47,306 nucleotides of DNA from an uncultured Alphaproteobacteria bacterium (GCA_944392815.1 CALXXY010000005.1:1-47306), one strand, 5' to 3'. Counted from the stretch's first letter, positions 1,358 through 38,921 are shown. Notes: a model not told the origin generated them from the sequence alone. Program-made: numbers and translations.

Positions 1358-4353
1358 AAAAACTGATTGCAATATTTGCATGTTTATTTTGTATTACGCC
1401 CGCGTTGGCTGAAACATACCTGCGGGTCGAAACGGATCAGTTATACACAATTGGCAAACAATATTTTCCAGACGCCAATAACCTGGCGTTGATGTTAAGT
1501 GAATATAGCGCACAACTGGACGCCACAGGGAACCAGGGTGTTAGCGCAACTGGCATGTGGGCGGTATGTCTGGCCGGCAATATTGATATCAAAACCAGTG
1601 CCGGCAAACAGCAATGTACCGCGTTTACCAATTCGTTAATGATGTTTGCGGATACAGAATACTATGCAGTATGCGATGGCGCCGAATACAACAAAATCCC
1701 GGCCGAGGTTAGGGAAAAATCCGTATGCGAACGCGATTTCTTTAACTGGACAAATGTGCAATTGGCGTCCGCCATCACATTGGCCCAGGAATACGCCCGT
1801 ATTAAATACAATGATTCTATTATTTGTTCGCAAAAATATAGCCAACGTGAAAATGACGATTGGGTAAAATGTAAATCGACCACCAGTGGCGCATTTTATG
1901 AATTCAAATTCGACAATGTGCGCGAATCCATTGATAACAAAATTCAAAAGGATATATCCACCGCGCTGTGCAGAATGCACACCGGGGGATCAGGTATAGA
2001 TTCTGGACAATTGGGACAATGGGCGGGCACCTATGAAAAAACCTGTGTGGTCGATAATGCCGAACAATGCGATAAAATTGCCGAAAGTGCAAAATTATTC
2101 GGCGCCACCACAGAATTTGGCGAAAATGAAGTATGCTATATTAAATTCAAGGCAGTAGAAGACGCCAGCGAACTGCGCACCGCGTGCGGCATTAACAATT
2201 TTGAATTTTGCCGCGGAATTCAGGCAAATACCAATTTATCCATGATTGACGCGCTGAAACAATATACCGGAAACAAATGCGGTGTCAGCCCCGCCATGAT
2301 TACATGCGACAATTCATTTAACACATATCGTGGTGCCGGTTGTGCTGTGACAACATTTAATCCCAAAGATGACATTATCACATGTTATTACAACGGCCAG
2401 CCAATTGATTATGTGTTCGATGACGTGAACGAGGCCTGGAAAAAATACGCCAATGCCGCCGAACAGGCAATGATGTGCATAAATGCGGACGGCACATTTG
2501 ATGGGAAACATTGTGTTGCCCTGGGCGAGGCGATGTGTGAAGAACTGAAGGCGCAAAATGAAGTATCATGTCCCATGTGCCAGGATATCATTTGGGACGA
2601 CGACAATGATCTGTGCATTTTGCCGGATTCCAGATCCGCAACACGTTTGCAAAACGGTGTAAAAATTGCCACAGTCGCGGGGACCGTTGTGGTTGCCGTG
2701 GCGGCGACTGTACTGACGGCCGGCACCGGCGCGGTTGCCATAGCCGGTTCCGTTTTGGTGGGTGTTGGTGGCGCGGGCGTTATAACGGCCGAAGCCGTCA
2801 TGACATACGGCCCATTTGACAAGTTTGTGAAAAAAGCGCAACAATGTTTTCTGGATAACGATGTCGCATGCGCCGAGGATTTACTTATGACCGAACTGAA
2901 CCGCATGCAGGGATATAAAGAGGAACTCACCGCAGCCCAGCAGCGGGGACTGGACGATATATTCGTGCGGCTGGTTGAAATGTTGCCAGATGATTCAAAA
3001 TTCTGGACCGAGTTCTTTGGCAATCCGGAATTTTTTGACTGCGATGAATCCGGCAATAATTGCGCGGTTAAATCACCCACGCAATTCTGGCAGGTTGCGC
3101 GCACTGTTGGCAACGTTATGATGATGGTGGGCGGGCTGGTAAACGTTGCCAATAATTATACGCAAATGGTACAACTGCGGGACGCTGTTCCTGCCCGTGT
3201 TAGCGACAATTTGAACAAAAGCGGATTATTGCATAATGTTAATGTGACTGGCACTCCTGGGACGGCTGTAAGTAATACATGGCTGCGATCAATAGCCGGT
3301 ATAAACGGTTGGCCCGCCAATATAACAAATTCGCAACTGGTGCAACAGTTGGGATTATCAGTTGGCGACAGAATTTGGTTTACGCCCGCTGGCAGAATGT
3401 TGACCGGGGTATCCGCCACCGCCGCACAAAATCTGGGGGCGTCCATTGTCGCAGACGTCGTTGCCGGTGGGAATTTGGTATTCCATAATCTGGAGGATTC
3501 TGATGCGCTGGTTATATCGCGCCCGGGCGGCGATAATGCGCCTGGGTTGCCGATTTTGGACGATGATATTGAAATTCCAGATGACGATATCATTGCCGAT
3601 GACCAAATCGATGTTGGTGATAATCAGCCGATTGTTTCGCCAATTCCAACGCCAGATCCAATTCCTGTGCCAACGTTGCCGGTGTTATCTGACGATATCG
3701 ATATACCTGATATGGATTTGAACTTTGATGACAAAATCGATGTCGGTGACACGCGTTTGTCTGTCGACAAACGGACATATACCGAAACGTCCGAACACAA
3801 TGTCGAACGCAAAAATAATGCTGGACTGATTGCGGCGGCGGCTGTGGTCGGCGCGGTTGGTACAGGTGCATTGATTGGCGCGTTGGTTGCTGGTGGCGAC
3901 GATGACGACGAAGCGCAACAAACGCCACAGCAAAGCGAATTTGAAATCGCGCTGGGTGCAATACTGGACAAAGCAAACGGTGTTGTCGGACGTGTGCAAT
4001 TGCAAATTGTGACGCTGGCCAAACTGTTGACCACGGGCGGTTCGTATGCCCCAATCGTGAACGTCAATGGAAATGCCGTGGTGGTGGCAATTTATCAGGG
4101 TCAATATTATCCGTACTATCTGGACGCGAATACCAATCGTTGGACCGCGTTGCACAGCATAGACCAAACCACAGGCCAGATTCAGCCGTACAGTCCATAT
4201 CCAACCGGGAATGCGGTTATTGACGGTATAGGGAACGTGCTGGATACGGAATTAACCCCGAACATTATCCGCCAGGTATTGGTGCAAAATTCGTTGGGGG
4301 TTGGATTCCCCGCACCTGCGGCCAGTGCGTATATGATTATCAACGGGCATTAA
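1354..4353 (+). CDS. Large (999 aa) exported Cys-rich multidomain protein with long hydrophobic segments
   Basis: GGGGGT RBS-like motif, ATG at 1354, signal peptide MKKLIAIFACLFCITPALA; Cys-rich N-half, hydrophobic hairpin, acidic/Pro linker, second TM-like segment; terminator follows. Confidence 0.9.
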   Translation: MKKLIAIFACLFCITPALAETYLRVETDQLYTIGKQYFPDANNLALMLSEYSAQLDATGNQGVSATGMWAVCLAGNIDIKTSAGKQQCTAFTNSLMMFADTEYYAVCDGAEYNKIPAEVREKSVCERDFFNWTNVQLASAITLAQEYARIKYNDSIICSQKYSQRENDDWVKCKSTTSGAFYEFKFDNVRESIDNKIQKDISTALCRMHTGGSGIDSGQLGQWAGTYEKTCVVDNAEQCDKIAESAKLFGATTEFGENEVCYIKFKAVEDASELRTACGINNFEFCRGIQANTNLSMIDALKQYTGNKCGVSPAMITCDNSFNTYRGAGCAVTTFNPKDDIITCYYNGQPIDYVFDDVNEAWKKYANAAEQAMMCINADGTFDGKHCVALGEAMCEELKAQNEVSCPMCQDIIWDDDNDLCILPDSRSATRLQNGVKIATVAGTVVVAVAATVLTAGTGAVAIAGSVLVGVGGAGVITAEAVMTYGPFDKFVKKAQQCFLDNDVACAEDLLMTELNRMQGYKEELTAAQQRGLDDIFVRLVEMLPDDSKFWTEFFGNPEFFDCDESGNNCAVKSPTQFWQVARTVGNVMMMVGGLVNVANNYTQMVQLRDAVPARVSDNLNKSGLLHNVNVTGTPGTAVSNTWLRSIAGINGWPANITNSQLVQQLGLSVGDRIWFTPAGRMLTGVSATAAQNLGASIVADVVAGGNLVFHNLEDSDALVISRPGGDNAPGLPILDDDIEIPDDDIIADDQIDVGDNQPIVSPIPTPDPIPVPTLPVLSDDIDIPDMDLNFDDKIDVGDTRLSVDKRTYTETSEHNVERKNNAGLIAAAAVVGAVGTGALIGALVAGGDDDDEAQQTPQQSEFEIALGAILDKANGVVGRVQLQIVTLAKLLTTGGSYAPIVNVNGNAVVVAIYQGQYYPYYLDANTNRWTALHSIDQTTGQIQPYSPYPTGNAVIDGIGNVLDTELTPNIIRQVLVQNSLGVGFPAPAASAYMIINGH
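3547..3750 (+). repeat. Intragenic duplicated 25-codon acidic unit (3547-3621 and 3676-3750)
   Basis: LPILDDDIEIPDDDIIADDQIDVGD vs LPVLSDDIDIPDMDLNFDDKIDVGD, separated by a Pro-rich linker. Confidence 0.8.
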
Positions 4354-13560: not shown

Positions 13561-14319
13561 CTAAATTGCACGGGCAACGCGACAAAATGTCACGCCATAT
13601 ACGGCTGTGGCGCCTGCCCTGCGCAGAACCCGATTTAATTCCGAAAATGTTGCGCCGGTTGTCATGACGTCGTCAACCAATAAAATACGCCGGCCTGCAA
13701 TTTTGTCTGGACGCGTGATGGTAAACACACCATGAATGTTTTCAGCACGTTGCGCGGCATTTTTATGTCCCATGTCAGGTCTGTATTTACGGTGAATACT
13801 GGCTGTATCCAGGGGAACGCCATATGCGCGTGCAATCGGGCGCGCCAGCAAAGTCGCCTGGTTATAGCCCCGATGAAACATACGTCGCCACGCCAATGGA
13901 ACTGGGATAACAATGTCTGGGGACAAATCCGTATCGCGCAGCGCCCAAATCATTGCGCGTGACATGAATGCTGAATTTTTAATACGACCCGCGTGCTTGA
14001 ACGGCAATACAGCCGCACGCGACGCGTCATCGTACACGCACGCTGAACGAATTAAATCCAGCGCACAACCGCCCGCCATACAATTCGGGCATAATGGATG
14101 CGAACCCAAATCCAAGTTTGCTGGAAATGGATATCCGCATTTGTCACACATGGGACGCGATATCCAATTAAACGCTGTCCAACAATCTGCACATAATTCG
14201 CCATCAACAGACACAGCCGCGCCGCACAATGGACACGCAGATGGAAATAAAAAATTAACAGAAAAACGCGCGATGTTGGAAATCAACTGTATCGCGCGCG
14301 AGTGTTTGGAATTTACCAC
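13561..14319 (-). CDS. comF: ComF family protein (double zinc ribbon plus PRTase)
   Basis: LFPSACPLC...LCADC...CDKCG...CPNC, PVPL...RGYNQA, ILLVDDVMTTGAT. Confidence 0.93.
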   Translation of the reverse strand: MVNSKHSRAIQLISNIARFSVNFLFPSACPLCGAAVSVDGELCADCWTAFNWISRPMCDKCGYPFPANLDLGSHPLCPNCMAGGCALDLIRSACVYDDASRAAVLPFKHAGRIKNSAFMSRAMIWALRDTDLSPDIVIPVPLAWRRMFHRGYNQATLLARPIARAYGVPLDTASIHRKYRPDMGHKNAAQRAENIHGVFTITRPDKIAGRRILLVDDVMTTGATFSELNRVLRRAGATAVYGVTFCRVARAI

Positions 14320-15686
14320 GACATACTTCTGTACGTTTTTTTACTGACGGTATCACCGAATACATCACGTTGACGTTTGGTCAATGTTTCATATTGATCC
14401 AACGATATCATGCGCAGCACCAGGCCATCTTCGTCACGCGCAGACAGCACCGGCAAAATACGCTGTTCTGAAATTCCATTGTCACGCAAAACCTGTTCGA
14501 TTATCGCCAAACGACGCGCCGCCAATTTGCGCGCATCATCATCAGACGCAACACTTTGCGGGATTGATACCTGGACCGCACGAGTCGGGTTGCTTAACAC
14601 TATGCCCGCATATTCGGTCAGCAAATTATAATTATCGCGTGATAATGCAGCGTCGTCATTGCGGAAATTGATTTTAATTTCCAGTGGACGGATTCCGCCG
14701 GATTCGGACAAATCGCGGGCGGACGTAAATCCCATGGCGTTTTCAGTCATATCACTGGCCACATCGAATCTGTCGTCAATCTGAAATGTAGACAGGTGTT
14801 TGTTTTCTGATAAAAATGTTTTTCTGAATGCACGACGTAATTCACTGGGGCTCATTTTCGTCATGTCGTCACGCACGGCCGCAATGCGCGGTGATTCCGC
14901 ACGTTTAACAGCACGAACCACAACATCGTCAGACGAATTTATATCGTCCATCGGCACAACCATTTGCGACAATTTTACATCTGTATCATCAACAGTATTT
15001 TGTGCAACAACCGGCGCAGCGTTTGTAGCGACCGGACGTGCAACAACCCTGCGCGATGCGACGCGCGATGGTGTTGGCGCGGGTTCGGCCACCGTTGCGG
15101 CGGCCACGCGTACACTTTCGTCCGCACGGCGTTGCAATTCATTCAGGCGCGCAATTTGCGCATCCAATTCGGATAACGGTTCTGTCACCTGGGGTGCAGC
15201 GGCAACGCGCGTGGCGCGCGGTGACGGCGAATTTGCTGATGTGGAATTCAAACTTTCTTCTGGTAATAAATCGTCGGAACGAATAACGGAAAATTCATCT
15301 GGCGTCGGCAAACGTAATGGCGCAACCGTTGACGATGTATTATGTGCCCATAAATCCGCACTGGGGCGGCGCGGCGACAACACATCGGCCGCGGCAACAA
15401 TTTGTTCACCACTGTCAGTGGACGGCGATGGCATCACGGTTTTAACAGGCGTGGCACCGCGCGTGACGACACGTTTTTGCGTCGTTGCATCAGATGTATT
15501 TGTGTCAGATTTTTTTGCAACTGTGGTTGTGTTTTGTGTTTGTTTGGCCGGCGTCACGATTGGTTCACCAAACGCGGCACGCGCAGAAACGCCCGCCGAT
15601 GATAAATTAACAACCGGCAAACGCGCGTCCGCAAATGCCGGCAACGCAATAAACAGTGATAACACAGAAATTGCAATCTGTCGCAT
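14313..15686 (-). CDS. Exported protein with long Ala/Thr/Ser/Arg low-complexity region and degenerate C-terminal OmpA-like domain
   Basis: AGGAAAGG RBS; signal peptide MRQIAISVLSLFIALPAFA; INFRNDDAALS...RKLAARRLAIIEQVLRDNGISEQRI resembles OmpA_C. Confidence 0.8.
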   Translation of the reverse strand: MRQIAISVLSLFIALPAFADARLPVVNLSSAGVSARAAFGEPIVTPAKQTQNTTTVAKKSDTNTSDATTQKRVVTRGATPVKTVMPSPSTDSGEQIVAAADVLSPRRPSADLWAHNTSSTVAPLRLPTPDEFSVIRSDDLLPEESLNSTSANSPSPRATRVAAAPQVTEPLSELDAQIARLNELQRRADESVRVAAATVAEPAPTPSRVASRRVVARPVATNAAPVVAQNTVDDTDVKLSQMVVPMDDINSSDDVVVRAVKRAESPRIAAVRDDMTKMSPSELRRAFRKTFLSENKHLSTFQIDDRFDVASDMTENAMGFTSARDLSESGGIRPLEIKINFRNDDAALSRDNYNLLTEYAGIVLSNPTRAVQVSIPQSVASDDDARKLAARRLAIIEQVLRDNGISEQRILPVLSARDEDGLVLRMISLDQYETLTKRQRDVFGDTVSKKTYRSMSW

Positions 15687-15759
15687 TTTCCTTTCCTTCC
15701 TGATATTCATCATAGAACAAATGACGAATCGCACGCAAGTGGAAAAATGCGATTTCAGA

Positions 15760-22591: not shown

Positions 22592-23104
22592 TTAATACCG
22601 GCCAATACACCCCAAATATGAATTGCCGGTCGATTCCAGTACATTTATAAACTGCGTCGGGCTGCGTCCTGTGAACAGGGCCAAAATTGTCCCCGCATCG
22701 GTGGCCAACATATCCGCCACGGTCGCGATGCCTGAATTCATTTTTTTGAAAAAACCACTGGCCGGATATATTTCCGCAGCCAGTAATTGATTTTTCCCAC
22801 GGGAATGCGCGCCGCCCGCCGTCGATTCAATAACCATCAGTTGACATTCCGGGGATATTATTAATTTATCCGTGACTGTGGCGTCGGACCCCAATAATTC
22901 ACCCCACCAGCCGGTCGATTCGCAAAATACAGGATAATATACCGTGGCATTCGGATTTTTGGACAATATATCCATTAAATCCGTATCAGCCCCAACAACG
23001 TCCGGCATAACGCCAGTTGCGTTGTTTATAACCTTGCGCGCCAACTGATAATCTGTATCAGCGGTTGTTTTGCGTGGCCAGTAAAGAATCGGAAACTGCT
23101 TCAT
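22592..23104 (-). CDS. Hypothetical protein (alpha/beta)
   Basis: 170-aa ORF filling the gap, co-oriented with neighbours; no family recognised. Confidence 0.65.
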   Translation of the reverse strand: MKQFPILYWPRKTTADTDYQLARKVINNATGVMPDVVGADTDLMDILSKNPNATVYYPVFCESTGWWGELLGSDATVTDKLIISPECQLMVIESTAGGAHSRGKNQLLAAEIYPASGFFKKMNSGIATVADMLATDAGTILALFTGRSPTQFINVLESTGNSYLGCIGRY

Positions 23105-23172: not shown

Positions 23173-24462
23173 TTATTTTTTTAGTGAGGAATACCATTTT
23201 TTCAGGTTTCCCCATGCCGTATTTAAATTTTTTCGTGTCGTTTCGTAAAAACTTTCTGGCACAGAAACCTTGGCAAACAGCGTGCGAATCAGGGCCGGAA
23301 TCATGCCCATAAACATCGCAATGAACAAACCCATTAACAGAATCGTTATTATACTGTCGTTGCGCAACATCAATCCGTCCATCAAAATTGTCGGATCGTT
23401 TTGCGATAATGCCAACGCCAAACGGTCTGCGCCGTCCCATTTGCCGAATACTGCGTTTAAAAACATGACTGAAAACGTTATAAATACGCCCGTTAATGCA
23501 ATACCTGCGGTGGATTTAATCACATCGTCCACCATTTGTTTGATATTACGGCCACCGTCTGGGAATATTTTCCACCCGCGAAACAGCCACGACAGCAGCA
23601 TAAACGGCAACATTACCAAATCCATTGATAATTGGATAAATACCTGCAGAAAATACAGCGGTATCGGCAACAGTGCAAAGAAAAATAATAAAAACACCAA
23701 TAATCCCGCAAAGAATATTGGGATATTTGGAAAAATGGGGATATTCCACATAATGTGGTGCATATATTCTGAATTAAACGACATATTCAGCATGCTCCAA
23801 CCAATCGTCATGCCCAGGCCCGTCATCTGGTGGACGTTTGCAACCTCGCACGCAAGGTTATGGCGCAGGCGTGGCGAAAATGCGCCCGCTGTGGCGGCAT
23901 CAACACTGGCGGCGGCGGGATCCGCCATGGCGGTTGCAACAACGCATGTTGCAAATTCATCGTCACCCGCGATTATTCTGTTTAACGACAGTCCCACATT
24001 AAATACTGGTTCAATTACAACGTCTGTTAACAAACGTGGCAAAGGCATGGCCAGCAATGCAATCACAAAACCCAGTTTGATAAATTTAGTTGAAAAATCA
24101 CTGACCAACGACCAGGGTTCTTCCAATTTTGCGTTGATAAATCCCGCAAACAATTTCCACGCAAACCATACAGCCATTAATCCGGACGCAAATGGAATTA
24201 TAACCGAACCAATTGCGTTATATATGCGTGGCAACAGCCCGGACATGGTTGCCATGATGTCTGAAAACATCTGGCATGACCAACAACTGGAAAAAAAGTT
24301 TAATGCGTCGGCCATGTTGACCGGTGCCGCCGTTCGATAAATTGAAAAACCAGCAATCACACCAACGCCTGCGATTGTGCCGACAAGCAATGGCGCAACC
24401 GCCCCCGCCGAAAACGGCAGGAAAGATAAAAAAACTATCCAGAATTTTTTTAGCCAGTTCAT
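23173..24462 (-). CDS. VirB6/TrbL-like polytopic membrane protein, paralog 1
   Basis: Multiple TMs; SCWSC; FIQLSMDLVMLPFMLLSWLF motif; Lys-rich C-terminus. Confidence 0.7.
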   Translation of the reverse strand: MNWLKKFWIVFLSFLPFSAGAVAPLLVGTIAGVGVIAGFSIYRTAAPVNMADALNFFSSCWSCQMFSDIMATMSGLLPRIYNAIGSVIIPFASGLMAVWFAWKLFAGFINAKLEEPWSLVSDFSTKFIKLGFVIALLAMPLPRLLTDVVIEPVFNVGLSLNRIIAGDDEFATCVVATAMADPAAASVDAATAGAFSPRLRHNLACEVANVHQMTGLGMTIGWSMLNMSFNSEYMHHIMWNIPIFPNIPIFFAGLLVFLLFFFALLPIPLYFLQVFIQLSMDLVMLPFMLLSWLFRGWKIFPDGGRNIKQMVDDVIKSTAGIALTGVFITFSVMFLNAVFGKWDGADRLALALSQNDPTILMDGLMLRNDSIITILLMGLFIAMFMGMIPALIRTLFAKVSVPESFYETTRKNLNTAWGNLKKWYSSLKK

Positions 24463-24470
24463 TGTTTTTA

Positions 24471-24504
24471 AGTATACCATATTTTGCCCTAAATGTGATA
24501 TAAT
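24471..24504. promoter_or_regulatory. Back-to-back extended -10 promoters driving the divergent VirB6-like genes
   Basis: TGGTATACT on minus (24479-24471) and TGATATAAT on plus (24496-24504) within a 68-bp gap. Confidence 0.55.
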
Positions 24505-24530
24505 TGAAAAGATAAAAAATATCCGAGAGA

Positions 24531-25808
24531 ATGAAATTACTGAAACGGGCGTTTATTGGGGCGATTGCGGCGATGGTATTATTTTCGCCGATTGGTGCGT
24601 ATGCCGCAGATAATTCAATTGTTGACGCATTGAATCTGGCGCCGTTGATTCCGACTGTTTTGGACGCGTTGTTGGCGGTGGCGACGGGCGGGTACGAATT
24701 TTTTGTCGGGAATGGTGATGGGATTATATATATTTTGGTATGGGGATTTTTGGCCGTATCAATGGGATTGTATCTGATAAAAATGTATTTCCCAAAAACA
24801 TGGGTATCGTTTTTCGGATTTTCAGGTGGCGGTGAAATGACCGGCGGCGGAATTGATGGGTTCACTATTGCCACCAATATGTTAAAACCCATGATTCGCG
24901 CAATTATTGCCGTGACCGTATTACTGCAATTAAAACCAGTATATCTGACCGAATGGTTGATTAATCCGTTTTTGCAATTTGGTGCAATTTATACCGAAAG
25001 TATTACGAGCACTATCAACGAAACAGGTGTCAACGCGCCACAAATCAACTGTCCGCCGTCTGTGATTCAACAGGGCTGGATAAGTCAGGAAAGTTGTGAA
25101 TTTTTGGTGCAACCTGTATCGGACATTTCACATGCAAATAATCAAATTATCAAACGCGGATTTGATTTTATAAATTCTGGGTTGCGGGGATTAATTACAC
25201 TGATTCCGCACGGTGGTGAAAATTTCCTGAACATAATTACAGGGATAATTTTGGTATTCACCTTTGTCGCCAGTAATTTATTTATGGCCCTGTTGATTAT
25301 CCAGGCAATATTTAATTTTGGTATGGCGTTGGTTCTGTACCCGTTCCAGGTTTTGGCGTATGTTGTTAAATCCAGCGATAAATGGTTGGACGTGTGGCCT
25401 GCGTTCGGCGGCATTACAAAAGCATTACAGAAAATCATCGTCACCATGATTGCGTGCGCGTTTATATTGTGCGTGAATATCGCAATTGTGCGCGCACTGT
25501 TTCAATGGAATTCGTCTGTATTCGTTGTGGCGGCGGGTGGCACGGCCACATCAAATGTACCAACTGTTGCAAACAGCGCGCTGGGGTTTGGCGAACATTC
25601 GATATTGTGGCTGTCTGCGATACTGACGTTCTATTTAATGTTCCGCATATTTAACATGACGCGCCAGCAATTGGATTCGTACGTTGGCAAAGGTATGGAC
25701 AAGTTATACAACCAGGTGACGGGCGACGCGAAAAAAACTGTCGATAATACGAAAAAACTGGGAAAAACGTTGGGTACTGCATTCGGGTGGATTAAAAAGA
25801 AAAAATAA
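24531..25808 (+). CDS. VirB6/TrbL-like polytopic membrane protein, paralog 2
   Basis: Signal-like N-terminus, multiple TMs; IFNFGMALVLYPFQVLAYVVK; periplasmic Cys pair. Confidence 0.7.
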   Translation: MKLLKRAFIGAIAAMVLFSPIGAYAADNSIVDALNLAPLIPTVLDALLAVATGGYEFFVGNGDGIIYILVWGFLAVSMGLYLIKMYFPKTWVSFFGFSGGGEMTGGGIDGFTIATNMLKPMIRAIIAVTVLLQLKPVYLTEWLINPFLQFGAIYTESITSTINETGVNAPQINCPPSVIQQGWISQESCEFLVQPVSDISHANNQIIKRGFDFINSGLRGLITLIPHGGENFLNIITGIILVFTFVASNLFMALLIIQAIFNFGMALVLYPFQVLAYVVKSSDKWLDVWPAFGGITKALQKIIVTMIACAFILCVNIAIVRALFQWNSSVFVVAAGGTATSNVPTVANSALGFGEHSILWLSAILTFYLMFRIFNMTRQQLDSYVGKGMDKLYNQVTGDAKKTVDNTKKLGKTLGTAFGWIKKKK

Positions 25809-27011
25809 ATGAACGATTTTTTGAATTCTTTGGTTGATTCATCTGTTCAGTGTTGGGGCTGTCCTGTGTTTGACCGCCTGTTTCAGATTGTGTCAAATGC
25901 GGCCGCCGCGGTGTATGACCAGTTTGTTGTGTTCTGTGCGATTTTGTTCTGTGTGCTGTTTGCGTTCTATGTCATTAATGCGGTGTGGAAAAATATGCGT
26001 GGCGGGATTACCGATCCGCTGTATCAAAAATCGTTAAAGCCCGTGTTAATCAATTCACTGGTGGCGTTGGCTTTGTTATCCCTGGGCGTTATGTTGCCAC
26101 GTTTTATAACAACAATCACTTTTGAACCCGTGGCGGATATCACTTTGATTTATACGCAAAGTATGTTGCGTACCGACCCGGACGCTGTGAATGAACGCGT
26201 GACGTATCAGCCGATGGAAATGGCGGACGATGGATTTTATCGCCCGCAATTACGCGATAAAATTATTATGCTGATGAAAACGACCATTACGCAATTTCAA
26301 TCCTATATGAAATTGGGGATTGCGGTTATGGATAAAGCGTTTTCATTAAATGCTTTGTTGGGAATTGGCGCACTGATAAAGCATATTATTTTATTCTTTA
26401 TCGGATTATATTTGTTTTACGGATTTTTTAAATTATTCGTGCGATTCTGTTTTTATTTCGCAGACATTATTGTGGCAATGACGTTTTTTGCGTTTTTCTT
26501 TCCTTTGTCATTAATGCTGACCGCGTTCAAGGGCGGCGATGCGCCGGGGTGGATGGCTGGATTGGGCAAAACCATGGGGACCGGACAATTTAAAAATTTA
26601 ATCAATGCGATTATTGCACTGGCGTCGGCTGTGTTGACGTATACTGTCATTATGGTGATAATTGCAAAATTTTTCGCCGAACCCGGACAAAGCGCGTCCG
26701 AAATTATGGAACTGATTACCAATGGCAATATTTTCGCAGGCGATTTGTCGGACGAAAATTTGGCCGCCATGACAATTGGTGGGTGCGTAATTTTGGTTTA
26801 TGTGTTAAACTTTATATACGATCAAATTCCCCAGGTGACGTCCATGGTGCTGGATTCGTTTGGGGTGTCGGCTGAAAATACGTTAAGTGAAAAATTGGCT
26901 GATGACGCAATGAAATTGACAACCAATGTTGTAAATGCTGCAACTGCGTTGGGTAAAAATATTTTATCTGGCGGCAAAGAAAAAGACGACAAGGGAACTG
27001 ATACCAAGTGA
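25809..27011 (+). CDS. VirB6/TrbL-like polytopic membrane protein, paralog 3
   Basis: QCWGC; IVAMTFFAFFFPLSLMLTAFK; abuts the upstream stop. Confidence 0.7.
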   Translation: MNDFLNSLVDSSVQCWGCPVFDRLFQIVSNAAAAVYDQFVVFCAILFCVLFAFYVINAVWKNMRGGITDPLYQKSLKPVLINSLVALALLSLGVMLPRFITTITFEPVADITLIYTQSMLRTDPDAVNERVTYQPMEMADDGFYRPQLRDKIIMLMKTTITQFQSYMKLGIAVMDKAFSLNALLGIGALIKHIILFFIGLYLFYGFFKLFVRFCFYFADIIVAMTFFAFFFPLSLMLTAFKGGDAPGWMAGLGKTMGTGQFKNLINAIIALASAVLTYTVIMVIIAKFFAEPGQSASEIMELITNGNIFAGDLSDENLAAMTIGGCVILVYVLNFIYDQIPQVTSMVLDSFGVSAENTLSEKLADDAMKLTTNVVNAATALGKNILSGGKEKDDKGTDTK

Positions 27012-28453
27012 AAGCAAAACTGATTATGTTTGCTGTGCAATTTATTATGGGCGCAATTGCGTTGGGTATTGGTATTTGGTATTTGTCGTCGTCCATTGGT
27101 GGGGACGCCATAACATACACCAGCATGAACGGATTTTTATCTGCAATTGGTGTGGAAAATGGTGATATAGCGTCCGCAAATGGGTGTTTCCTGTGCGGAT
27201 ATATCCAGGAATTATTCGCGGTTATTGGTAATGCAGCTGAAATGTTTTGGACCGCGATGGTTGACAATATCTGGATATTATTGGCATTGGGATTTGGATT
27301 GTTTTTATTTATCTATACAGGTCAATATATTTTTGATGCCGCAAAAAAAACAGCCACGCTGGATACAAATGAAAAAAAATTGGAATTGGCCGGGTGGTTT
27401 GACAAAGTTTGGCGCCAGGGCGCGCGTGTGTTGATTGTTGGCGCGCTGATGGGTGCATTGGGCATGGGGGGAACCGCCGCGTTGCGCACTGTGGCAAATA
27501 TTACCATTACGCCGGTATTGTTTGTTGGGGCGGAATTATCCATGGTCGCCAGTGGTGTATCTGATGCCGCGCAATGTGGCGCGATTGATGCCGCGAATAT
27601 GGACGACAATGTGTTGGCGCCGATACTGCAACCGTTTATGTGCGCGATGGGCAACATCAACAGTGTTATGTTGGCGGGGGCCGCGGGCGGATTTTCGTTG
27701 ATGAATTATGCCTGGCTGGATTTGGGTGGCGGAATATTTACATGGATTGCGGGTTTGACGTTGGTGCTGATGTTTTTAATCATTGGGTTTGATTTGGTGT
27801 TCCAGGTTTTATCCGTCATATTCAAATTGGTGTTTATTATCATATTTCTGCCACTGATATTGGCGGCCGGCGCATTTGAAAAAACGTGGAGTTTGGCCAG
27901 TGGCGTTGTTGGCAATGCTGTTAATATGCTGGTTAAATCTGCGATTCAAATCGTCGCCATTACGTTAAAAGTTATCATAATGTATGCGATTGTTGCGTAC
28001 AGTGCCGACGCGTATTTCCCGGGGCCTGTTGATGGATACAGCGCGATATTGCCCCCTATGATGGGACAAACTGTGCAAAATCCAGATGCACAAACGATGT
28101 CTGTGATAAATGTATTTTCCACATGCGAAGCCGCCGCAACCACAACCGGCGAAATGGACGCTGACGCGTTTCGCGATTGTTTCACTGCCCAGAAAAACGC
28201 AGTCGAAAATGAATACCCGGGCGCATTTGATTTTATGCGAAATGGTTGGGATTTCCTGTTGATGATGATTATGATTTTCGCATTGTATTTCTGGATAGTG
28301 CGGCCAAAAGTTGACGCCATATTCGGTTTGGACAAAGCAGGCACAGGCGAACAATTCGACTTTGGTAATTGGGCCAAAGATTTAGGCACAAAAATTTGGA
28401 ACACACCAAAACAACTGGCGGGGATTTTCACCAAAAAAATCGGTAAAAAGTAA
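27008..28453 (+). CDS. VirB6/TrbL-like polytopic membrane protein, paralog 4
   Basis: GTGA overlap; GCFLC; IFKLVFIIIFLPLILAAGAFEKT. Confidence 0.7.
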   Translation: MKAKLIMFAVQFIMGAIALGIGIWYLSSSIGGDAITYTSMNGFLSAIGVENGDIASANGCFLCGYIQELFAVIGNAAEMFWTAMVDNIWILLALGFGLFLFIYTGQYIFDAAKKTATLDTNEKKLELAGWFDKVWRQGARVLIVGALMGALGMGGTAALRTVANITITPVLFVGAELSMVASGVSDAAQCGAIDAANMDDNVLAPILQPFMCAMGNINSVMLAGAAGGFSLMNYAWLDLGGGIFTWIAGLTLVLMFLIIGFDLVFQVLSVIFKLVFIIIFLPLILAAGAFEKTWSLASGVVGNAVNMLVKSAIQIVAITLKVIIMYAIVAYSADAYFPGPVDGYSAILPPMMGQTVQNPDAQTMSVINVFSTCEAAATTTGEMDADAFRDCFTAQKNAVENEYPGAFDFMRNGWDFLLMMIMIFALYFWIVRPKVDAIFGLDKAGTGEQFDFGNWAKDLGTKIWNTPKQLAGIFTKKIGKK

Positions 28454-29766
28454 TGAGTTTATTAAAATCGATTTTTACCAAAATTATCGCCTTCGCAATT
28501 GCGACAATGGTTATCGTGCCCAATGCACTGGCGGTCACAGCCACCACCAATATGCCGGCGGCTGAAATTGGTGATTATGGGAATTGGTTGACACCGGAAA
28601 ACGTTGCGATGTTTAACGACAATATATCAGCCGACCTGTCGGAATTTCAGGCAGAATCACGCGCCGCGCAAAAGGTGCCTGATTATGTCCCGATCGAGGC
28701 CAAAGTTGGATTGGCGTTAATGAATGCGCTGTCGCGAATTTCGGATATTTTGGATTCATCGTTGGTGCGTTTTTCAATTATATTCATGATTATCGCATAT
28801 GCGTTTTGGATATTATTCGAAGCGTACAATATGATGTCCAAGGGCACGTCTGCGATGGATTTCGGGGTCGATGCAGTGAAAAAGGGTGCTGTTATCGCCA
28901 TATGGTCCATTGTGTTGGCGTTTGGTCCAGCGCAGATTTTCATGTGGGTTATGGGGCCAATTATTGGCGTGGCTGCATATTTGTCTGATTTGATATTAAA
29001 TGCCGTATCAAATGTCGCAGGATTTGAAATTCCGGACACATGTGCCGCTATACACGCATATACAGCCGCAAATATTTCAGAAAATATGATAATGGACGCC
29101 AAAACCGCGGGCGATTTATTGTGCGTGCCGACACGATTGTCCGGATTTTTTGCAACTGCGATTTCAGCGGGCTGGCAATGGTTGGTTGCAGGTATCGGCC
29201 ACAGCGCATTCACTATGTTGGTCGGCGCGATATTTATTGGCGTGTTTTTATATAACGGATTTAAATTTATGCTGATGGGGCTGGGGGTGGTTGTGGATTT
29301 ATTCCTGGGGGTGATGATGTTGCCTTTTACCGCCATCGCAGAAACATTGAAAAAAACATCGTACAGCGGTATCGCGGGCAGTATATTCAACGGATTTTTG
29401 GGGCTGTTCAATACACAATCTTTGGCCGATCAAATAAAGCGATTTGTAAATGCAGCGATTTATTTTGTATCGCTGTCCATGGTCATTGCTGTGTGCGCGG
29501 CATTGCTGTCGGGGGCTGTCACGGTTGATTTGGCGTCTGATGTTCCGACATTGGACAATGCGGGATTTGCGATAACATTGCTGACGGGGGTGTTGGTGGC
29601 GCACCTGGCCAAGCGCGCGGACGAAATTGCGAAAAAACTGGGTGGCAGCATAGACGCCAGTTTCGGCACAAAATTGGGCAGCGATATAACCAAACTGTGG
29701 AATGGCACAATTTCCAAAGGCAAACAATTAATCAAAGATATCCGCAGCAGCAAAAAAACTTCATAA
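28453..29766 (+). CDS. VirB6/TrbL-like polytopic membrane protein, paralog 5
   Basis: TAATG overlap; signal-like N-terminus; VVDLFLGVMMLPFTAIAETLKKT; AKRADEIAKKLGG. Confidence 0.7.
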   Translation: MSLLKSIFTKIIAFAIATMVIVPNALAVTATTNMPAAEIGDYGNWLTPENVAMFNDNISADLSEFQAESRAAQKVPDYVPIEAKVGLALMNALSRISDILDSSLVRFSIIFMIIAYAFWILFEAYNMMSKGTSAMDFGVDAVKKGAVIAIWSIVLAFGPAQIFMWVMGPIIGVAAYLSDLILNAVSNVAGFEIPDTCAAIHAYTAANISENMIMDAKTAGDLLCVPTRLSGFFATAISAGWQWLVAGIGHSAFTMLVGAIFIGVFLYNGFKFMLMGLGVVVDLFLGVMMLPFTAIAETLKKTSYSGIAGSIFNGFLGLFNTQSLADQIKRFVNAAIYFVSLSMVIAVCAALLSGAVTVDLASDVPTLDNAGFAITLLTGVLVAHLAKRADEIAKKLGGSIDASFGTKLGSDITKLWNGTISKGKQLIKDIRSSKKTS

Positions 29767-29767
29767 C

Positions 29768-29796
29768 AAAAAAAATCCGCCATATGGCGGATTTTT
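29768..29796. terminator. Bidirectional terminator
   Basis: AAAAAAAATCCGCC-ATAT-GGCGGATTTTT between convergent genes. Confidence 0.85.
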
Positions 29797-32674: not shown

Positions 32675-32706
32675 TAAAACGCCATTTACATGGCGTTTTA
32701 TTTTTT
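32673..32706. terminator. Bidirectional terminator
   Basis: AATAAAACGCCAT-TTAC-ATGGCGTTTTATT. Confidence 0.8.
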
Positions 32707-35050
32707 AATTCGTTGTTTGTTCCACACATACACCATTGGAATCCTTGACAAAGCCCGTTTTACATGTACATGTGCCATTAATATACGACCCATTTTCGCA
32801 TTTTACATAGCAGTATGCACCAACGGGCTCGTACCCATTTATGCAGCGGCACATTTCGTTTGTGCATTCGCCATTACCGGCTTCGCAGGTGTTATCGTAC
32901 ACTGAATTATCCGGACACAGCAATGATTGATAGAACATTTCCGAAATTCCTTCTATACAGGCCTCTGGTTTATCTGGGCTGCATTCAGATGTTGTATCGC
33001 CGTCAAACACGGCATAGGCACATGTTAACGCCACATTGCGGCACGCGCCACGCATAACGTTGTAAATGCTGCCTACACTGGCGCTGGACGTCCATGAATT
33101 AACCTGGGTCACCTGTTGATTATAACATGTGGCAACGTCCAATATGCAGTTCGATGAATAATCCGATATAATCTGGCTTTGGGCGGCACGGATATTCACC
33201 ATAGCGCGCTGGACATAATTCAAAACAACGTCATTGTACGGCAAATAGTTTCCATTATCATCATATGTGTATGCCTGGCATTTATCCAGCACGGCACGGC
33301 ACAGACCTTCGTCGGTCACATCTTGCTTCGTACCGATTTTCTGCAATAAATATTTCGCGACACAACGGCCATCGTCGCCGGCATCGGCACAGTATGTTTC
33401 GTCCAATGTCGTGCTGGCGCCGTATGCGTCCTCGAGATATTTCTTGTCAATTGTGGCATTGTTATAATCCGCCATAAAATCGGTAATGTCTGTAATATCC
33501 TGGCCCAGGACAACTTCGCCATTTTCATCGATATAGCGTTTGGTTGGGTCCAGACATTTTGTATATCCCTCGCCACAGACCATTTCGTCGGTCATGCATG
33601 TATCCAACGCCGCGATACAGCCCTTGGCATCGTATTGATTTTTGTTTTGCATGACGGCCAGGCGCGCTTTCTGCAACATCAGGTTCGCACTGCGCACATT
33701 GGACACCAATGTGTCGTTCATTTTTGACAATCCCTGTTCATACGCAATGCAATCGCGATCAACGGCCAAATCATAGTTAGCCGTGATTTGATCGATGTTG
33801 GCGCCGGCGGCCTCGCACTCGTTCAAAATTGTTTTGCAGCGATTTTTGGCGGCGTTATATAAACTGGTTCCGCGCAGATTTGAAAAACTGGTTGTGCCGG
33901 TGTTCAGAAAATCCAAACTGAACATATCCGCCACATTGGACGAAAAATCCAAATTCATATCCAGCCCAAATGATGTCGACGTCGACGAATACGATGATGT
34001 TGCGGTTGATGGATCGCGGATTAATTCTTCGATTTCGTCCAACATACTGCGGGTTTCAGATGTATCGCGCGCACCGGACAGGGCTTCTTCGGCCTCGGTC
34101 TCGTTCATAATGGCACGGATTTCATCGGCCGACAGCCCGACATAGCGAATACGTTGGGCAACCTCGTTCAACTGGTTGTTGGCGCTGGTGACGGCCTCTT
34201 CTACGTCGGCATAATCAGACAGATTGGCGGAACATGAACAGCGCCCCTGATTGGAATCAATAACATTACAGAATTGATCCATGCAATCATTATATTGCTG
34301 TTGACATGACGAATTTAAATCTGTGGTTAATTGCATGCGTTCGGTGGCCTCGGCAATTGATTCGGCCGTGGGCGTGACAGTGGCCGCACGTGATTGAACG
34401 CCACGAATTTGTTCGTCTATGTTCGAACCAGTTTGAATATCGGTGCCGGCAATGGTGGCGCGACCGCCAACCTCGGCCGTGGACGGGCGCAGTGTTAATC
34501 CCGCACGGCGTACCGCCGGATTATTATTCACACTGGCGGATTGAACGCGCGCATTACGGCCAACTGTATTGACCGTTGCGGTTAAATTTTCACGCGCAGT
34601 ATTTGTATGTCCAGATTGCGTGGCACTGGCGCGGGATACGTTGCCCGTACTGGCCACAGTATTGGACGGGCCACGCGGCGTTGATGTCGGCGCGGCATCG
34701 CCCAAATTCAATACACGACCGCCCACACGCACGACATCTGAATTATTAACGCCGGTTGCGGTGGTGGCACTGCGACTGACGACATTGCGTGTTGTTGCGT
34801 CACGCGCAGTGGTGGCCACAGTGTCCGAATTGTTTGCGGAATTTGTCACAGATGTTCCGGCGGCCGGCGTCGTCACACGCGATACAGACGCACGCGACAC
34901 AGTATTCGCCGTGGCACGCGATGTGGCCGTGGTTGTGGTGTCTGAATTATTTGACGGAATAACGCGCGATATAGCAAAAGCCCCGCCGTCGGCAAAAACC
35001 AACGGTACTGCGACCGCTATCAGAAAAAAGCACAGGGGCAATCTTCTCAT
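32705..35050 (-). CDS. Large exported Cys-rich helical protein with T/S/A/R-rich N-terminal stalk and EGF-like C-terminus (paralog of 36720-38921)
   Basis: Signal peptide; CQQQYNDCMDQFC...RCSCS; C-terminal CRCINGY...CTCKTGF. Confidence 0.88.
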   Translation of the reverse strand: MRRLPLCFFLIAVAVPLVFADGGAFAISRVIPSNNSDTTTTATSRATANTVSRASVSRVTTPAAGTSVTNSANNSDTVATTARDATTRNVVSRSATTATGVNNSDVVRVGGRVLNLGDAAPTSTPRGPSNTVASTGNVSRASATQSGHTNTARENLTATVNTVGRNARVQSASVNNNPAVRRAGLTLRPSTAEVGGRATIAGTDIQTGSNIDEQIRGVQSRAATVTPTAESIAEATERMQLTTDLNSSCQQQYNDCMDQFCNVIDSNQGRCSCSANLSDYADVEEAVTSANNQLNEVAQRIRYVGLSADEIRAIMNETEAEEALSGARDTSETRSMLDEIEELIRDPSTATSSYSSTSTSFGLDMNLDFSSNVADMFSLDFLNTGTTSFSNLRGTSLYNAAKNRCKTILNECEAAGANIDQITANYDLAVDRDCIAYEQGLSKMNDTLVSNVRSANLMLQKARLAVMQNKNQYDAKGCIAALDTCMTDEMVCGEGYTKCLDPTKRYIDENGEVVLGQDITDITDFMADYNNATIDKKYLEDAYGASTTLDETYCADAGDDGRCVAKYLLQKIGTKQDVTDEGLCRAVLDKCQAYTYDDNGNYLPYNDVVLNYVQRAMVNIRAAQSQIISDYSSNCILDVATCYNQQVTQVNSWTSSASVGSIYNVMRGACRNVALTCAYAVFDGDTTSECSPDKPEACIEGISEMFYQSLLCPDNSVYDNTCEAGNGECTNEMCRCINGYEPVGAYCYVKCENGSYINGTCTCKTGFVKDSNGVCVEQTTN

Positions 35051-36693: not shown

Positions 36694-36721
36694 AAAAAAC
36701 GCCCCGACGGGGCGTTTTTTT
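36694..36721 (-). terminator. Terminator of 36720-38921
   Basis: AAAAAACGCCCC-GAC-GGGGCGTTTTTT. Confidence 0.85.
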
Positions 36722-38921
36722 AATCTCCTGTGCTGTCTTTTTGTTTTTCCCAATCACGGATTTCTTTAACCCAATTATTCAACAGACACTGTTCACGCAG
36801 ATTGGCTGAATTACACTTAGTCGCATCTTCGCCAATACAGAGCGGTGTATCCCCATCGGTGACCGTTGCACCATTTACGCCGTTCAAGATTTCGTTCAGT
36901 GTCACGACATTGCGGCAGGTGTTTTCCTCGTAATTCTGGCTGTTATTGCAGGACGCGTTATCCTGTTCATCAATAATAGCGCGGAATTGCGACGTAGACG
37001 GATTGCAAATCATTGTTTCATAGCAATGCGGAACATTTGCAACCTGGGCACAGTATGTTTTGATACGCGCCGATGTCCAATTCGGTTCGGCATCTGCCTG
37101 GGTTTCATAGCAATCGAATATCTCGCTTAAACATTCGTTGAAATTCGTGCCGGCGGCTGTTGCCTCGGCCAGAACGGTTTCCTGTTCTTCCTGATAGAAT
37201 TCCAGACGTTTTTGTTGCAATGCCTGTTGGGCGGCAACCTTTTGATATCCGATATTCTGGGCGGTTGTGCTTAACTGTTCACCGTATGCGTCACAGTCAG
37301 CGTTCGCGTCCAGCGCATATTGCTGCATAATGCTGCGGCGGGCGTCGGCCACCGGGCCACGCAGGTCGGCATACGGGTCGCCAGATGCAGACGTATAGCC
37401 AAAGCATGTTGCGGAATTGGACGCTGTATAACCGGTGTTGGGTTCAATGAAGTCCAATTCATATGTACCTGTGTTGGATACGGATATATAACTGTTGTAA
37501 TTGTACGGGCACTGGGAACGGCCGTTGCCGCATTTTGTACCACCAGATGGCGGGGTGCCACAGGCCTCGTATATGCCGTTAAAGCAGGAATCCAACACGC
37601 GGTTGCACACATTGTTGTGCGCATATTCAAACAATTCGTACCCCCATGTTTCGGCCAGGGAATCCTTTAAATTTTCTGAATTTGCCAACGAACCATCTAT
37701 GCCGGCCAAACTGCCCACAACGTTGGTCAATTCGTCAAATGCAGATGTCAAACTGTCTGTATCGTCGGTCAGAATGGTCAATGTGTTTTCCTTGGCTTTG
37801 GCCCAGGATTGCAGGGACGCCAAAATATCACTGCTGCTGCCGTCGATATTTGCAATATCAAACCCGAAATTATTACCAGTTTCTGTACAATATAACGGTT
37901 GTGAGCACGATGACAACGCGGAACCATTTGTGCCGTAAATACCATGGTTGTTGCACCATTCGATGGCCTCGTCCGAAGATTGGCCGTATTGATCGGTGAC
38001 CTCTTTCCATGATACACAGTTCATAACCTTTTCAGCGTCGGTTAATTGAAACGCCTGGCTGACATCTTGGCCCTTGGTGGCAATCAACAACGCCAATTCA
38101 CCGGAAACTTTGATTAATTCCTCGTTCGCTTGTTCCAGGGCGGCTTCGGCCTCGGCAAATGCTTTGACACGACCGGCACATGCGCAACGGCGCTGGGCCG
38201 CATTACGTGCCGTGCAGATTTCGTCCATACAGGCATAATATGATTCTTTGCAGTTATTATATGCCTCGGCAGAAATCAGACCGGTTGATGAATCAATTAT
38301 GTTTGAATAATTGCCCGTATACAATGCACTGGACAGATATGTGTATGTATTTGTGGCGGCTTTGTTCCCGCGGATTGCACTGCCCGTCAGGGACACACGC
38401 GACGGCGTTGTGGTTGTACGTGCAATTACTGCGCGCGATGGCGATGCGGTTGTGCGCGACACAACATTACGTGACGTATTGCCACGTGACGTTGTCGCCC
38501 GTGACGAAGCCGTTGTTGCGGCCGTGCCACGCGACGCGGTTGCAGTCGGACGGGCGGCCGCGGTTGTACGCGATGCGGTCGCCGTTGTTGTGCGTGACGC
38601 GGTTGGGGTCACCGCCCCGCGTGATACAGTCGCGCGTGATGTGACGGCGCGTGAATTTGTTGTGGTGCCGGTTGTTGTGCCACGCGATACGATATTCGCA
38701 GATGTACTGCGCGATGATGCAGGACGTGCAGACGCGCGGACGTTCGCGCCATTGCGGGGCGATTGCACGTTTGCCGCGGGCGACACAGTCACCGGCGCGA
38801 TTGGATCCGCAAACACGGCGCGCATTGACACCAATGTAGAGCAAACAAAGAATGCGCCCGCCAGTAAAAATACTGTGCCCATCGCATTTTTGATATGTTC
38901 TGCGAAATTACGGTTTTTCAT
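36720..38921 (-). CDS. Large exported Cys-rich helical protein with T/S/A/R-rich stalk (paralog of 32705-35050)
   Basis: GGGGGAG RBS; signal-like N-terminus; CKESYYACMDEIC...RCACA. Confidence 0.88.
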   Translation of the reverse strand: MKNRNFAEHIKNAMGTVFLLAGAFFVCSTLVSMRAVFADPIAPVTVSPAANVQSPRNGANVRASARPASSRSTSANIVSRGTTTGTTTNSRAVTSRATVSRGAVTPTASRTTTATASRTTAAARPTATASRGTAATTASSRATTSRGNTSRNVVSRTTASPSRAVIARTTTTPSRVSLTGSAIRGNKAATNTYTYLSSALYTGNYSNIIDSSTGLISAEAYNNCKESYYACMDEICTARNAAQRRCACAGRVKAFAEAEAALEQANEELIKVSGELALLIATKGQDVSQAFQLTDAEKVMNCVSWKEVTDQYGQSSDEAIEWCNNHGIYGTNGSALSSCSQPLYCTETGNNFGFDIANIDGSSSDILASLQSWAKAKENTLTILTDDTDSLTSAFDELTNVVGSLAGIDGSLANSENLKDSLAETWGYELFEYAHNNVCNRVLDSCFNGIYEACGTPPSGGTKCGNGRSQCPYNYNSYISVSNTGTYELDFIEPNTGYTASNSATCFGYTSASGDPYADLRGPVADARRSIMQQYALDANADCDAYGEQLSTTAQNIGYQKVAAQQALQQKRLEFYQEEQETVLAEATAAGTNFNECLSEIFDCYETQADAEPNWTSARIKTYCAQVANVPHCYETMICNPSTSQFRAIIDEQDNASCNNSQNYEENTCRNVVTLNEILNGVNGATVTDGDTPLCIGEDATKCNSANLREQCLLNNWVKEIRDWEKQKDSTGD

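Follow-up and report, generated by a model that had tools for sequence, protein, structure and literature searches.

A conserved array of five VirB6-like paralogues in a reduced-genome gut alphaproteobacterium, probably part of a dispersed type IV secretion system

Introduction

In the T4SS (type IV secretion system) of R388, the base of the stalk is described as a homopentamer of VirB6 (TrwI) in the inner membrane, which carries a VirB5 pentamer on top and serves as a platform for pilin addition (PMC9259494), and DotA of the Dot/Icm system is described as a pentamer (PMC12857230). Multiple VirB6 genes are known from the rvh T4SS of Rickettsiales, with five RvhB6 copies reported for Rickettsia and four virB6 genes for Anaplasma and Ehrlichia (PMC7648143, PMC8035066, PMC11077975); in Anaplasma, these paralogues are placed directly downstream of virB3-virB4 (PMC7648143). 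The rvh hallmarks listed in PMC11077975 comprise duplications of RvhB4, RvhB8 and RvhB9, the presence of RvhB6 in multiple copies and the lack of a VirB5 analogue. Here, we analyzed a 47,306-nucleotide stretch of DNA from an uncultured Alphaproteobacteria bacterium (GCA_944392815.1 CALXXY010000005.1:1-47306, hereafter the window), in which five adjoining genes at positions 23173-29766, designated A to E, appear to code for anciently diverged VirB6/TrbL paralogues.

A first-pass annotation of the window had proposed that these genes stand alone as the possible core of a secretion or contact system not described before. The window corresponds to the complete contig C5 of genome G000 (18 contigs, 927,230 bases, 96.8% complete), and other contigs of the same genome carry virB3-virB4, virB8-virB9-virB10, virB11 and virD4, at variance with this proposal. 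The best explanation as a whole, to which we give a probability of about 70%, is that the five genes supply VirB6 to the one VirB/VirD4-type T4SS that this bacterium has, the other genes of that T4SS being scattered over the genome. Taken by itself, the narrower statement that A-E are VirB6 components of that T4SS appears highly probable.

The host is a reduced-genome gut alphaproteobacterium of the order Rs-D84, similar to Candidatus Enterousia. In the account given in PMC12306168 (mSphere 2025), Candidatus Enterousia belongs to the order Rs-D84, has genomes of ~0.75-1.0 Mb and is without the tricarboxylic acid cycle, respiratory chains and standard transporters. Both the genus and the order are widespread in bird and mammal guts, with genomes of ~0.9 Mb. 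NCBI places the genus in Alphaproteobacteria incertae sedis. All relatives of gene D in public genomes came from gut or faecal metagenome-assembled genomes (MAGs), and the stretch itself was found in runs from chicken gut, with 20 rows that come from 8 studies, one of them possibly its source.

Results

Organization of the five-gene array

The five polytopic genes of 400-480 amino acids (aa) that had been described correspond to five intact open reading frames (ORFs) of 435, 425, 400, 481 and 437 aa. The features of the array, in window coordinates, are as follows:

A, 23173-24480, minus strand: putative VirB6/TrbL paralogue, array position 1; 435 aa, or 429 aa from the conserved Met7.
B, 24531-25808, plus strand: putative VirB6/TrbL paralogue, position 2; 425 aa; signal-peptide-like N-terminus; most diverged of the five.
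C, 25809-27011, plus strand: putative VirB6/TrbL paralogue, position 3; 400 aa.
D, 27008-28453, plus strand: putative VirB6/TrbL paralogue, position 4; GTG start; 481 aa; nearest to canonical TrbL of the five.
E, 28453-29766, plus strand: putative VirB6/TrbL paralogue, position 5; 437 aa; signal-peptide-like N-terminus; fastest evolving.
Divergent intergenic region between A and B, 24481-24530, no strand: A+T-rich; presumed promoters.
Hairpin between the convergent E and uvrD, 29771-29796, no strand: perfect palindrome; the stem has 11 pairs (5 G-C) and the loop has a length of 4.

The junctions B/C (TAAATG), C/D (GTGA) and D/E (TAATG) agree with the earlier description. The gap between A and B, given there as 68 base pairs (bp), has this size when counted from Met7 of A, a residue invariant among 31 orthologues, which explains the figure; counted from the first ATG of A it is 50 bp. 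Promoters are presumed to lie in this gap, where a consensus scan found promoter-like hexamers on both strands with no enrichment over shuffles (for the whole region, 25 hexamers versus 20.2 +/- 5.5 in shuffled sequences). The hairpin downstream of E is flanked on both sides by A/T runs and looks like a candidate bidirectional intrinsic terminator closing the B-E operon.

Pfam-level annotation of the flanks confirmed the housekeeping setting of the array, with genes for GyrA, a class I tRNA ligase, MurG, FtsW, MraY, PBP1A, an inositol monophosphatase, L31, UvrD, DnaQ and PPDK. As stated in the first-pass annotation, no other T4SS gene is present in the 47-kb window, and no integrase was found among the 28 window ORFs scanned. 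The G+C content of the array region (0.43-0.45) is slightly lower than that of the flanks (~0.47).

All five Pro-containing motifs quoted previously were found in the translations, and the motif Pro occupies one of only 9 invariant columns in a five-way alignment of A-E. Each protein contains 8-12 Kyte-Doolittle windows at or above 1.6, a crude hydropathy measure and no topology prediction, and on these windows A-E have the at least five hydrophobic helices expected of polytopic TrbL/VirB6 proteins. The C-termini, said to be mostly Lys-rich, are so in 4/5 proteins, with a mixed Lys/Asp tail in C. Trp residues that are invariant or nearly so follow the Pro helix in A (W298, W303), B (W285, W289), C (W248) and D (W294) and are absent there in E; in A-D they may correspond to the conserved Trp that PMC7648143 gives as a TrbL/VirB6 feature, located in the loop that follows the central helices.

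Pairwise BLASTP identity among A-E was 20-26%, with a best E-value of 4.7e-7, and hhalign comparisons between family profiles, each built from 73-80 orthologues, linked A-C (97.1%), B-E (94.9%), A-D (82.7%), D-E (81.2%) and A-E (79.5%). Weak pairwise identity together with these profile links supports the old, highly diverged duplication that had been claimed, and on this basis the five proteins are one network of distantly related paralogues. A, C and D also have an N-terminal CxxC motif just ahead of the first core helix, and A, B, D and E each contain a further invariant Cys pair in the central loop, suggesting that the conserved Cys residues may serve disulfide-bonded periplasmic parts.

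Relationship to VirB6/TrbL

The proposed membership in the VirB6/TrbL family held in profile-profile comparisons and not with curated models. Against the TrbL family model (PF04610), A, B, C and E had no match at E <= 1, and D scored 11.3 bits (E 0.086), below the gathering cut-off of 25.9 bits. Two distant D homologues exceeded this cut-off (P0162, 27.6 bits; P0172, 35.7 bits), and 4 more of the 24 full-length D homologues scanned had sub-threshold TrbL matches in the same profile region. We further surveyed 61 Rs-D84 genomes, which fall into six families, f1 to f6, the Enterousia family being f1. PF04610 matches over the cut-off were present in 11/61 genomes, nearly all of the sister family f3, where they occur in tandem arrays; 17 of the 19 f3 genomes matched PF04610 at E <= 0.01. 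Positional orthologues in f3 and distant D homologues passed the model at 26.1-40.1 bits.

The HHpred-type check against TrbL suggested by the first-pass annotation was run as hhalign against a reference alignment of 19 bona fide TrbL proteins from other Alphaproteobacteria, which score 43-201 bits against PF04610. With order-wide positional profiles, all five families matched at 92.6-97.5%, collinear over 229-266 columns, and a reversed-TrbL decoy control gave 0.3-2.4%. The A family matched already with its genus-level profile (93.5%, E 2.2e-7, 260 columns; order-wide 97.2%), as did D with a profile including distant homologues (97.4%, E 1.6e-11, 237 columns; order-wide 97.5%). For C, the genus-level profile gave 81% over 104 columns and the order-wide profile 97.3% (E 1.7e-11, 263 columns). 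For B and E, genus-level values were 1.9% and 23%, and order-wide values 92.6% (position-2 orthologues, E 4.7e-7, 258 columns) and 95.3% (E 2.3e-8, 264 columns), respectively.

The D-family profile also matched A (E 2.6e-21) and C (E 1.5e-16). When a profile of 22 D orthologues was compared with 1.84 billion representative sequences, only 82 proteins matched, with no transporter family among them. Longer homologues of B (868-2475 aa) were not found, which is weak evidence. Profile methods thus support the assignment of A-E as anciently diverged VirB6/TrbL paralogues.

Other T4SS genes in the genome

Profile searches of the genome contigs located the following components outside the window:

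virB3 and virB4, C6:3562-6279.
virB8, virB9 and virB10, C1:254980-259765.
virB11, C1:117622-118617: TIGR02788, 152.6 bits.
virD4, C10:3-1514 (N-terminal part) and C7:26684-26836 (C-terminal piece): cut by contig ends.
Second VirB8-like ORF, C1:82533-83234: borderline, 23.0 bits versus a cut-off of 23.2, covering profile positions 20-104 only; no NCBIfam match.

Together, the T4SS genes other than A-E are scattered over at least five other loci. Because virD4 is split between the start of C10 and the end of C7, these contigs probably join there. The T4SS components all scored far below the NCBIfam equivalog cut-offs, indicating that the whole system is very diverged. For VirB4, VirB11 and VirD4, the NCBIfam models PRK13897-13900, which we take to have been built from rickettsial proteins, outscored the Agrobacterium-type models PRK13850-13853. 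The only PF04610 signal in the whole genome was gene D, and A-E are therefore the sole VirB6 candidates for this T4SS. VirB4 and VirB9 each had one match (PF03135 and PF03524, respectively), and phmmer searches with the genome's own VirB4 and VirB9 returned only the query proteins, although a very diverged second VirB4 could escape both PF03135 and phmmer. No relaxase of PF03432 or PF08751 was found.

Some additional features of these loci were observed. VirB9 (534 aa) and VirB10 (827 aa), both at C1:255668-259765, are much longer than the corresponding Pfam domains, the VirB10 domain beginning at residue 401. Searches with VirB10 by phmmer also matched three other ORFs (C3:68804-71200, C2:164454-165370), probably via repetitive or low-complexity parts. 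A resolvase (PF00239, E 6e-39) is located at the start of C6 (C6:2-493), ~3 kb downstream of virB4.

Conservation and selection of the five genes

Retention of all five genes across the clade, another check that had been suggested, was examined in the genus and in the order, and the set is kept in both. We found 269 relatives of gene D overall and examined 80 Enterousia loci from different species-level genomes. All five genes were intact and in the same order and orientation in 74 of these loci, the other 6 being cut by contig ends, and synteny with the housekeeping flanks was conserved in the 80 loci. Apparent differences in gene order in 18 loci amounted to overlapping 5' ends only, a product of start codons placed too far upstream. 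Across the order, the D profile was found in 57/61 genomes, including 50 of the 51 high-quality ones. Five co-directional genes were present in 11 of the 13 loci from families f2-f6; of the remaining two, one is truncated at a contig start, and the other, which comes from a genome 72% complete, had no recognisable position 1.

Each of the six families shows the same set of five positions. When Enterousia families were compared with those of other families, the best match was always the same array position (98.9-100%, E 3.7e-17 to 1.9e-41), with values of 99.7% for A (E 3.4e-26), 98.9% for B (E 3.7e-17), 99.7% for C, 100% for D (E 1.9e-41) and 99.2% for E. At the level of profile comparison, these same-position matches show that five positional orthologue groups, in the order A-B-C-D-E, were fixed before the radiation of Rs-D84. 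Only in family f1 is gene A inverted relative to B-E, together with the neighboring ORF X170 (see below). The view of the array as chromosomal and vertically inherited is supported. VirB4 had exactly one match per genome in 61/61 genomes of the order, and where a single contig holds both, the array and virB4 are ~59 kb (G001) to ~285 kb (G021) apart.

Median ratios of nonsynonymous to synonymous substitution rates (dN/dS) were 0.053-0.073 per gene for A-E, based on 11-12 close pairs, and each of the five genes is under strong purifying selection. Identity among relatives was 44-68% for E versus 53-85% for A-D. As a rule, the stop codon of one gene overlaps or abuts the start codon of the next: the commonest junctions in the 74 complete loci were -4 for B/C (44 loci), -4 (38) or -1 (21) for C/D, which together make up 59/74 loci, and -1 for D/E (33).

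Several observations concern variation of the array among relatives. In one MAG (L011, L012; G020), the array occurs two or three times on separate contigs, with 79-83% identity to gene D of the window, which looks like two or three strains binned together and no duplication. In sister families, the lengths of the paralogues range over ~400-980 aa. One position-5 VirB6-like protein of 904 aa in family f3 (L109:10499-13213, G035) contains a Peptidase_M23 domain at residues 391-483 (E 5.9e-33), and this fusion of a VirB6 paralogue with a peptidoglycan hydrolase might replace VirB1. In families f2, f3, f5 and f6, the first VirB6 paralogue is immediately preceded by a small ORF of 78-94 aa, whose product has two hydrophobic helices and ends in a Lys-rich tail:

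Two-helix ORF, part 1: L108:13678-13944, L110:15308-15574, L111:15552-15815, L107:8519-8785.
Two-helix ORF, part 2: L131:16415-16699, L132:15413-15661, L136:431-667, L141:15481-15717.

We considered this ORF as a VirB3 homologue and rejected it as such: it had no match to the genome's VirB3 and no counterpart in G000. It could be a candidate pilin-like or VirB3-like accessory subunit.

Similar arrays in other Alphaproteobacteria

The D-family profile matched 37 of 401 genomes of the class, G000 included, nearly all of them 0.9-2.5 Mb in size and usually with several matches in tandem; 36 of the 400 other Alphaproteobacteria sampled, small-genome organisms, carry VirB6-like genes in detached arrays. 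Most genomes with a strong single-copy TrbL (e.g., G129, G134 and G116) were outside these 37. In 12 regions fetched from other families (L145-L156), five tandem VirB6-like genes were present in 2, four in 3 and one to three in the rest, some of the latter being cut by contig ends, and no virB3/virB4 relatives were found in the fetched flanks.

In a FastTree phylogeny of 99 core domains, a branch with support 96 separated 16 of the 18 canonical TrbL proteins from every array member. Rs-D84 positions 2-5 and 6 of the 9 position-1 proteins fell into one clade (support 99), which also includes one external array member and one canonical TrbL. The Rs-D84 paralogues grouped with one another and not one-to-one with the 36 external array members sampled, and the external paralogues tended to group by lineage. 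This pattern hints at repeated lineage-specific expansions or concerted evolution, in a poorly resolved tree that can serve as a hint only (41 of its 96 inner branches lack resolution, and there were several long-branch warnings). Multicopy VirB6 may extend far beyond Rickettsiales.

Proposed role and alternative explanations

In the arrangement that we propose, B-E would be expressed from one translationally coupled operon and A from a divergent promoter, and several or all five products would co-assemble into the VirB6 platform on which the periplasmic stalk stands, by analogy with the R388 homopentamer. Given the presence of VirD4 and the lack of any PF03432 or PF08751 relaxase, the machine would more likely deliver proteins into a partner cell than conjugate DNA. 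The missing respiration and transporters described in PMC12306168 would fit a contact-dependent lifestyle.

Several results weigh against assigning A-E to the VirB6 part of this T4SS. No Pfam or NCBIfam model reached its cut-off in the curated family scans of A-E; the genus-level profiles of B and E failed on their own (1.9% and 23%), so that their link to TrbL comes from positional orthologues of other families; and when PDB sequences were searched with the D-, A- and E-family profiles, no VirB6 chain was returned, only chance hydrogenase matches with E ~1. Among the expected partners, no VirB2 pilin was found in G000 by Pfam, and VirB5 (PF07996), searched at the sensitivity of Pfam alone, had a sole match of 18 bits in a 616-aa ORF, below the cut-off of 24.7. 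In metatranscriptome X20, short contigs (198-526 nucleotides, depth 3-5) lie on A, B, the B/C and C/D junctions, D and E, and parts of A and E are uncovered; such libraries may contain DNA, and these contigs are no proof of transcription or of an operon. Two other runs (X15 and X16) are probably DNA.

How the paralogues are arranged is a separate question. The retention of all five everywhere, their similar constraint and the mostly translational coupling favor, on balance, some of them sharing one ring; we regard the presence of different paralogues within one ring as a tentative proposal with odds close to, though just short of, even. A ring built strictly from one of each paralogue is attractive but doubtful, and we are equally reserved about its fullest form, an obligate one-of-each heteropentameric stalk base, that is, a permanently asymmetric T4SS core fixed before Rs-D84 diversified, in which each ring position would have its own gene. 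Arrays elsewhere hold 3, 4 or 5 genes, so the number five is not universal, and Anaplasma is reported to have four VirB6 paralogues (PMC7648143); with such lineages, a general one-of-each rule cannot hold. Strict one-of-each assembly is also disfavored by the markedly faster evolution of E compared with A-D and by the orientation of A in family f1, which suggests that it is transcribed separately. Our literature search found no paper linking VirB6 with the word "heteropentamer"; the four VirB6 paralogues of Ehrlichia are reported to interact (Bao et al. 2009).

The alternative that survives best, although we judge it unlikely, is that A-E are VirB6 paralogues of the T4SS that share no ring and either form separate homopentamers in alternative machines, each suited to other substrates, partners or conditions, or comprise one stalk base and accessory, regulatory or surface-exposed others. 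PMC8035066 describes as open whether the rvhB6 proteins of Rickettsia are used in mixed or in homogeneous complexes, and duplicated rvh components have been hypothesized to autoregulate secretion (PMC11077975). The copy number of 3-5 in other lineages and the faster divergence of E would also fit separate functions, and the lengths of sister-family members (~400-980 aa, one with a Peptidase_M23 domain) suggest distinct roles. On the other hand, no paralogue has been lost in complete loci (74/74 in Enterousia and 11/13 in other families, where the exceptions are cut or from the 72%-complete genome), the translational coupling of B-E is as expected for fixed stoichiometry, and there is little space for alternative machines in a genome of 0.9 Mb that has one VirB4, one VirB9, one VirB10 and one VirD4.

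It is very improbable that A-E form the core of a secretion or contact system of their own, undescribed so far and working independently of the classical T4SS parts. The housekeeping surroundings, the lack of any other T4SS gene in 47 kb and the 12 external arrays without virB3/virB4 in the fetched flanks gave this idea its appeal, but the window is only 1 of 18 contigs, the genome has virB3, B4, B8, B9, B10, B11 and D4 and no other VirB6 candidate, and VirB4 (61/61) and the array (57/61) co-occur across the order. Finally, an unrelated polytopic transporter family or a remnant of an integrated conjugative element, which the absence of a direct Pfam or NCBIfam assignment and the slightly lower G+C content might suggest, can be practically dismissed given the collinear TrbL matches over 229-266 columns with a clean decoy, the 82 proteins retrieved from 1.84 billion representatives with no transporter family, the housekeeping synteny conserved in 80 loci, the absence of PF03432/PF08751 relaxases and of an integrase among the 28 window ORFs scanned, and strong purifying selection.

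Neighboring genes

One further ORF may or may not be a member of the system:

X170, 22592-23104, minus strand: conserved soluble protein of 170 aa, encoded immediately downstream of A in the same orientation.

X170 adjoins A in 73 of 80 related loci and in 3/3 other genera of family f1, and had no match among the 13 loci from families f2-f6. Its median dN/dS is 0.052. It had no Pfam or NCBIfam match and no usable match in a protein atlas, and it was ruled out as a sixth paralogue (0.1-0.2% in hhalign against A-E). Elsewhere in the window, four ORFs (1336-4353, 14313-15734, 32705-35050 and 36720-38921; 1005, 473, 781 and 733 aa, respectively) had no Pfam match at E <= 1e-5; the 781-aa ORF (32705-35050) is conserved and adjoins dnaQ in many relatives.

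Implications

If A-E belong to the T4SS as proposed, a secretion system has been overlooked in common gut bacteria. The word "secretion" is absent from PMC12306168, and we found no paper pairing "Rs-D84" with "type IV secretion", the list of rvh-positive genomes in Fig. S1 of PMC11077975 lying outside this search. Preservation of the T4SS in 61/61 genomes suggests dependence on contact with another cell. Multicopy VirB6, which has been treated as a rickettsial hallmark, is here fixed in another order, and five compact paralogues set against a known pentameric VirB6 ring provide a clean case for asking what VirB6 paralogues do. Should the one-of-each ring be true, these abundant gut bacteria, whose genomes measure 0.7-1.1 Mb, would possess in the T4SS an indispensable organ for feeding on or manipulating a partner cell, and the same logic would explain the five rvhB6 genes of Rickettsia.

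Comparison with known secretion systems

Compared with conjugative TrbL proteins, A-E appear to share the polytopic core and the conserved Pro-containing helix, which in D and E is followed by an FxxT element; the difference lies in the score against PF04610, 43-201 bits for canonical TrbL versus 11.3 bits for D and no match at E <= 1 for A, B, C and E. With TrwI of R388 and DotA, they probably share the family, as judged by profile comparison, and the five paralogues equal the subunit number of the solved VirB6 ring. However, the R388 ring consists of five copies of one gene product and is accompanied by a VirB5 pentamer and a VirB2 pilus, whereas here there are five different genes, and Pfam detected no VirB5 and no VirB2; in addition, these proteins had no sequence-level match to a PDB chain.

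The closest known system, as far as gene content and profiles can tell, is the Rickettsiales rvh T4SS. Both are chromosomal, vertically inherited P-type T4SSs of reduced-genome alphaproteobacteria with genes scattered in islands, both have several highly diverged tandem VirB6 paralogues (five in this case), VirD4 and VirB11 are present in both, and VirB5, undetected here with Pfam alone, has no analogue in rvh. The RvhB8 duplication may have a counterpart in the second VirB8-like ORF, a borderline match (23.0 versus 23.2 bits) with partial profile coverage. In contrast to the two copies each of rvh, we found one VirB4 (61/61 genomes) and one VirB9 (in G000). The array is detached from virB3-virB4 (C5 versus C6, and ~59-285 kb apart in relatives), the Enterousia proteins are compact (400-481 aa) and without large hydrophilic extensions, sister families having forms of 500-980 aa, and the host is filed outside Rickettsiales (incertae sedis in NCBI; Rs-D84 according to PMC12306168). 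The first-pass annotation had raised the possibility that A-E are plain orthologues of rvhB6 in a standard rvh system; the system is indeed rvh-like, but the VirB4 and VirB9 duplications are missing and the array lies away from virB3-virB4. As judged by gene content and arrangement, the T4SS of this bacterium would therefore work like an rvh-type system while departing from two of the five rvh hallmarks.

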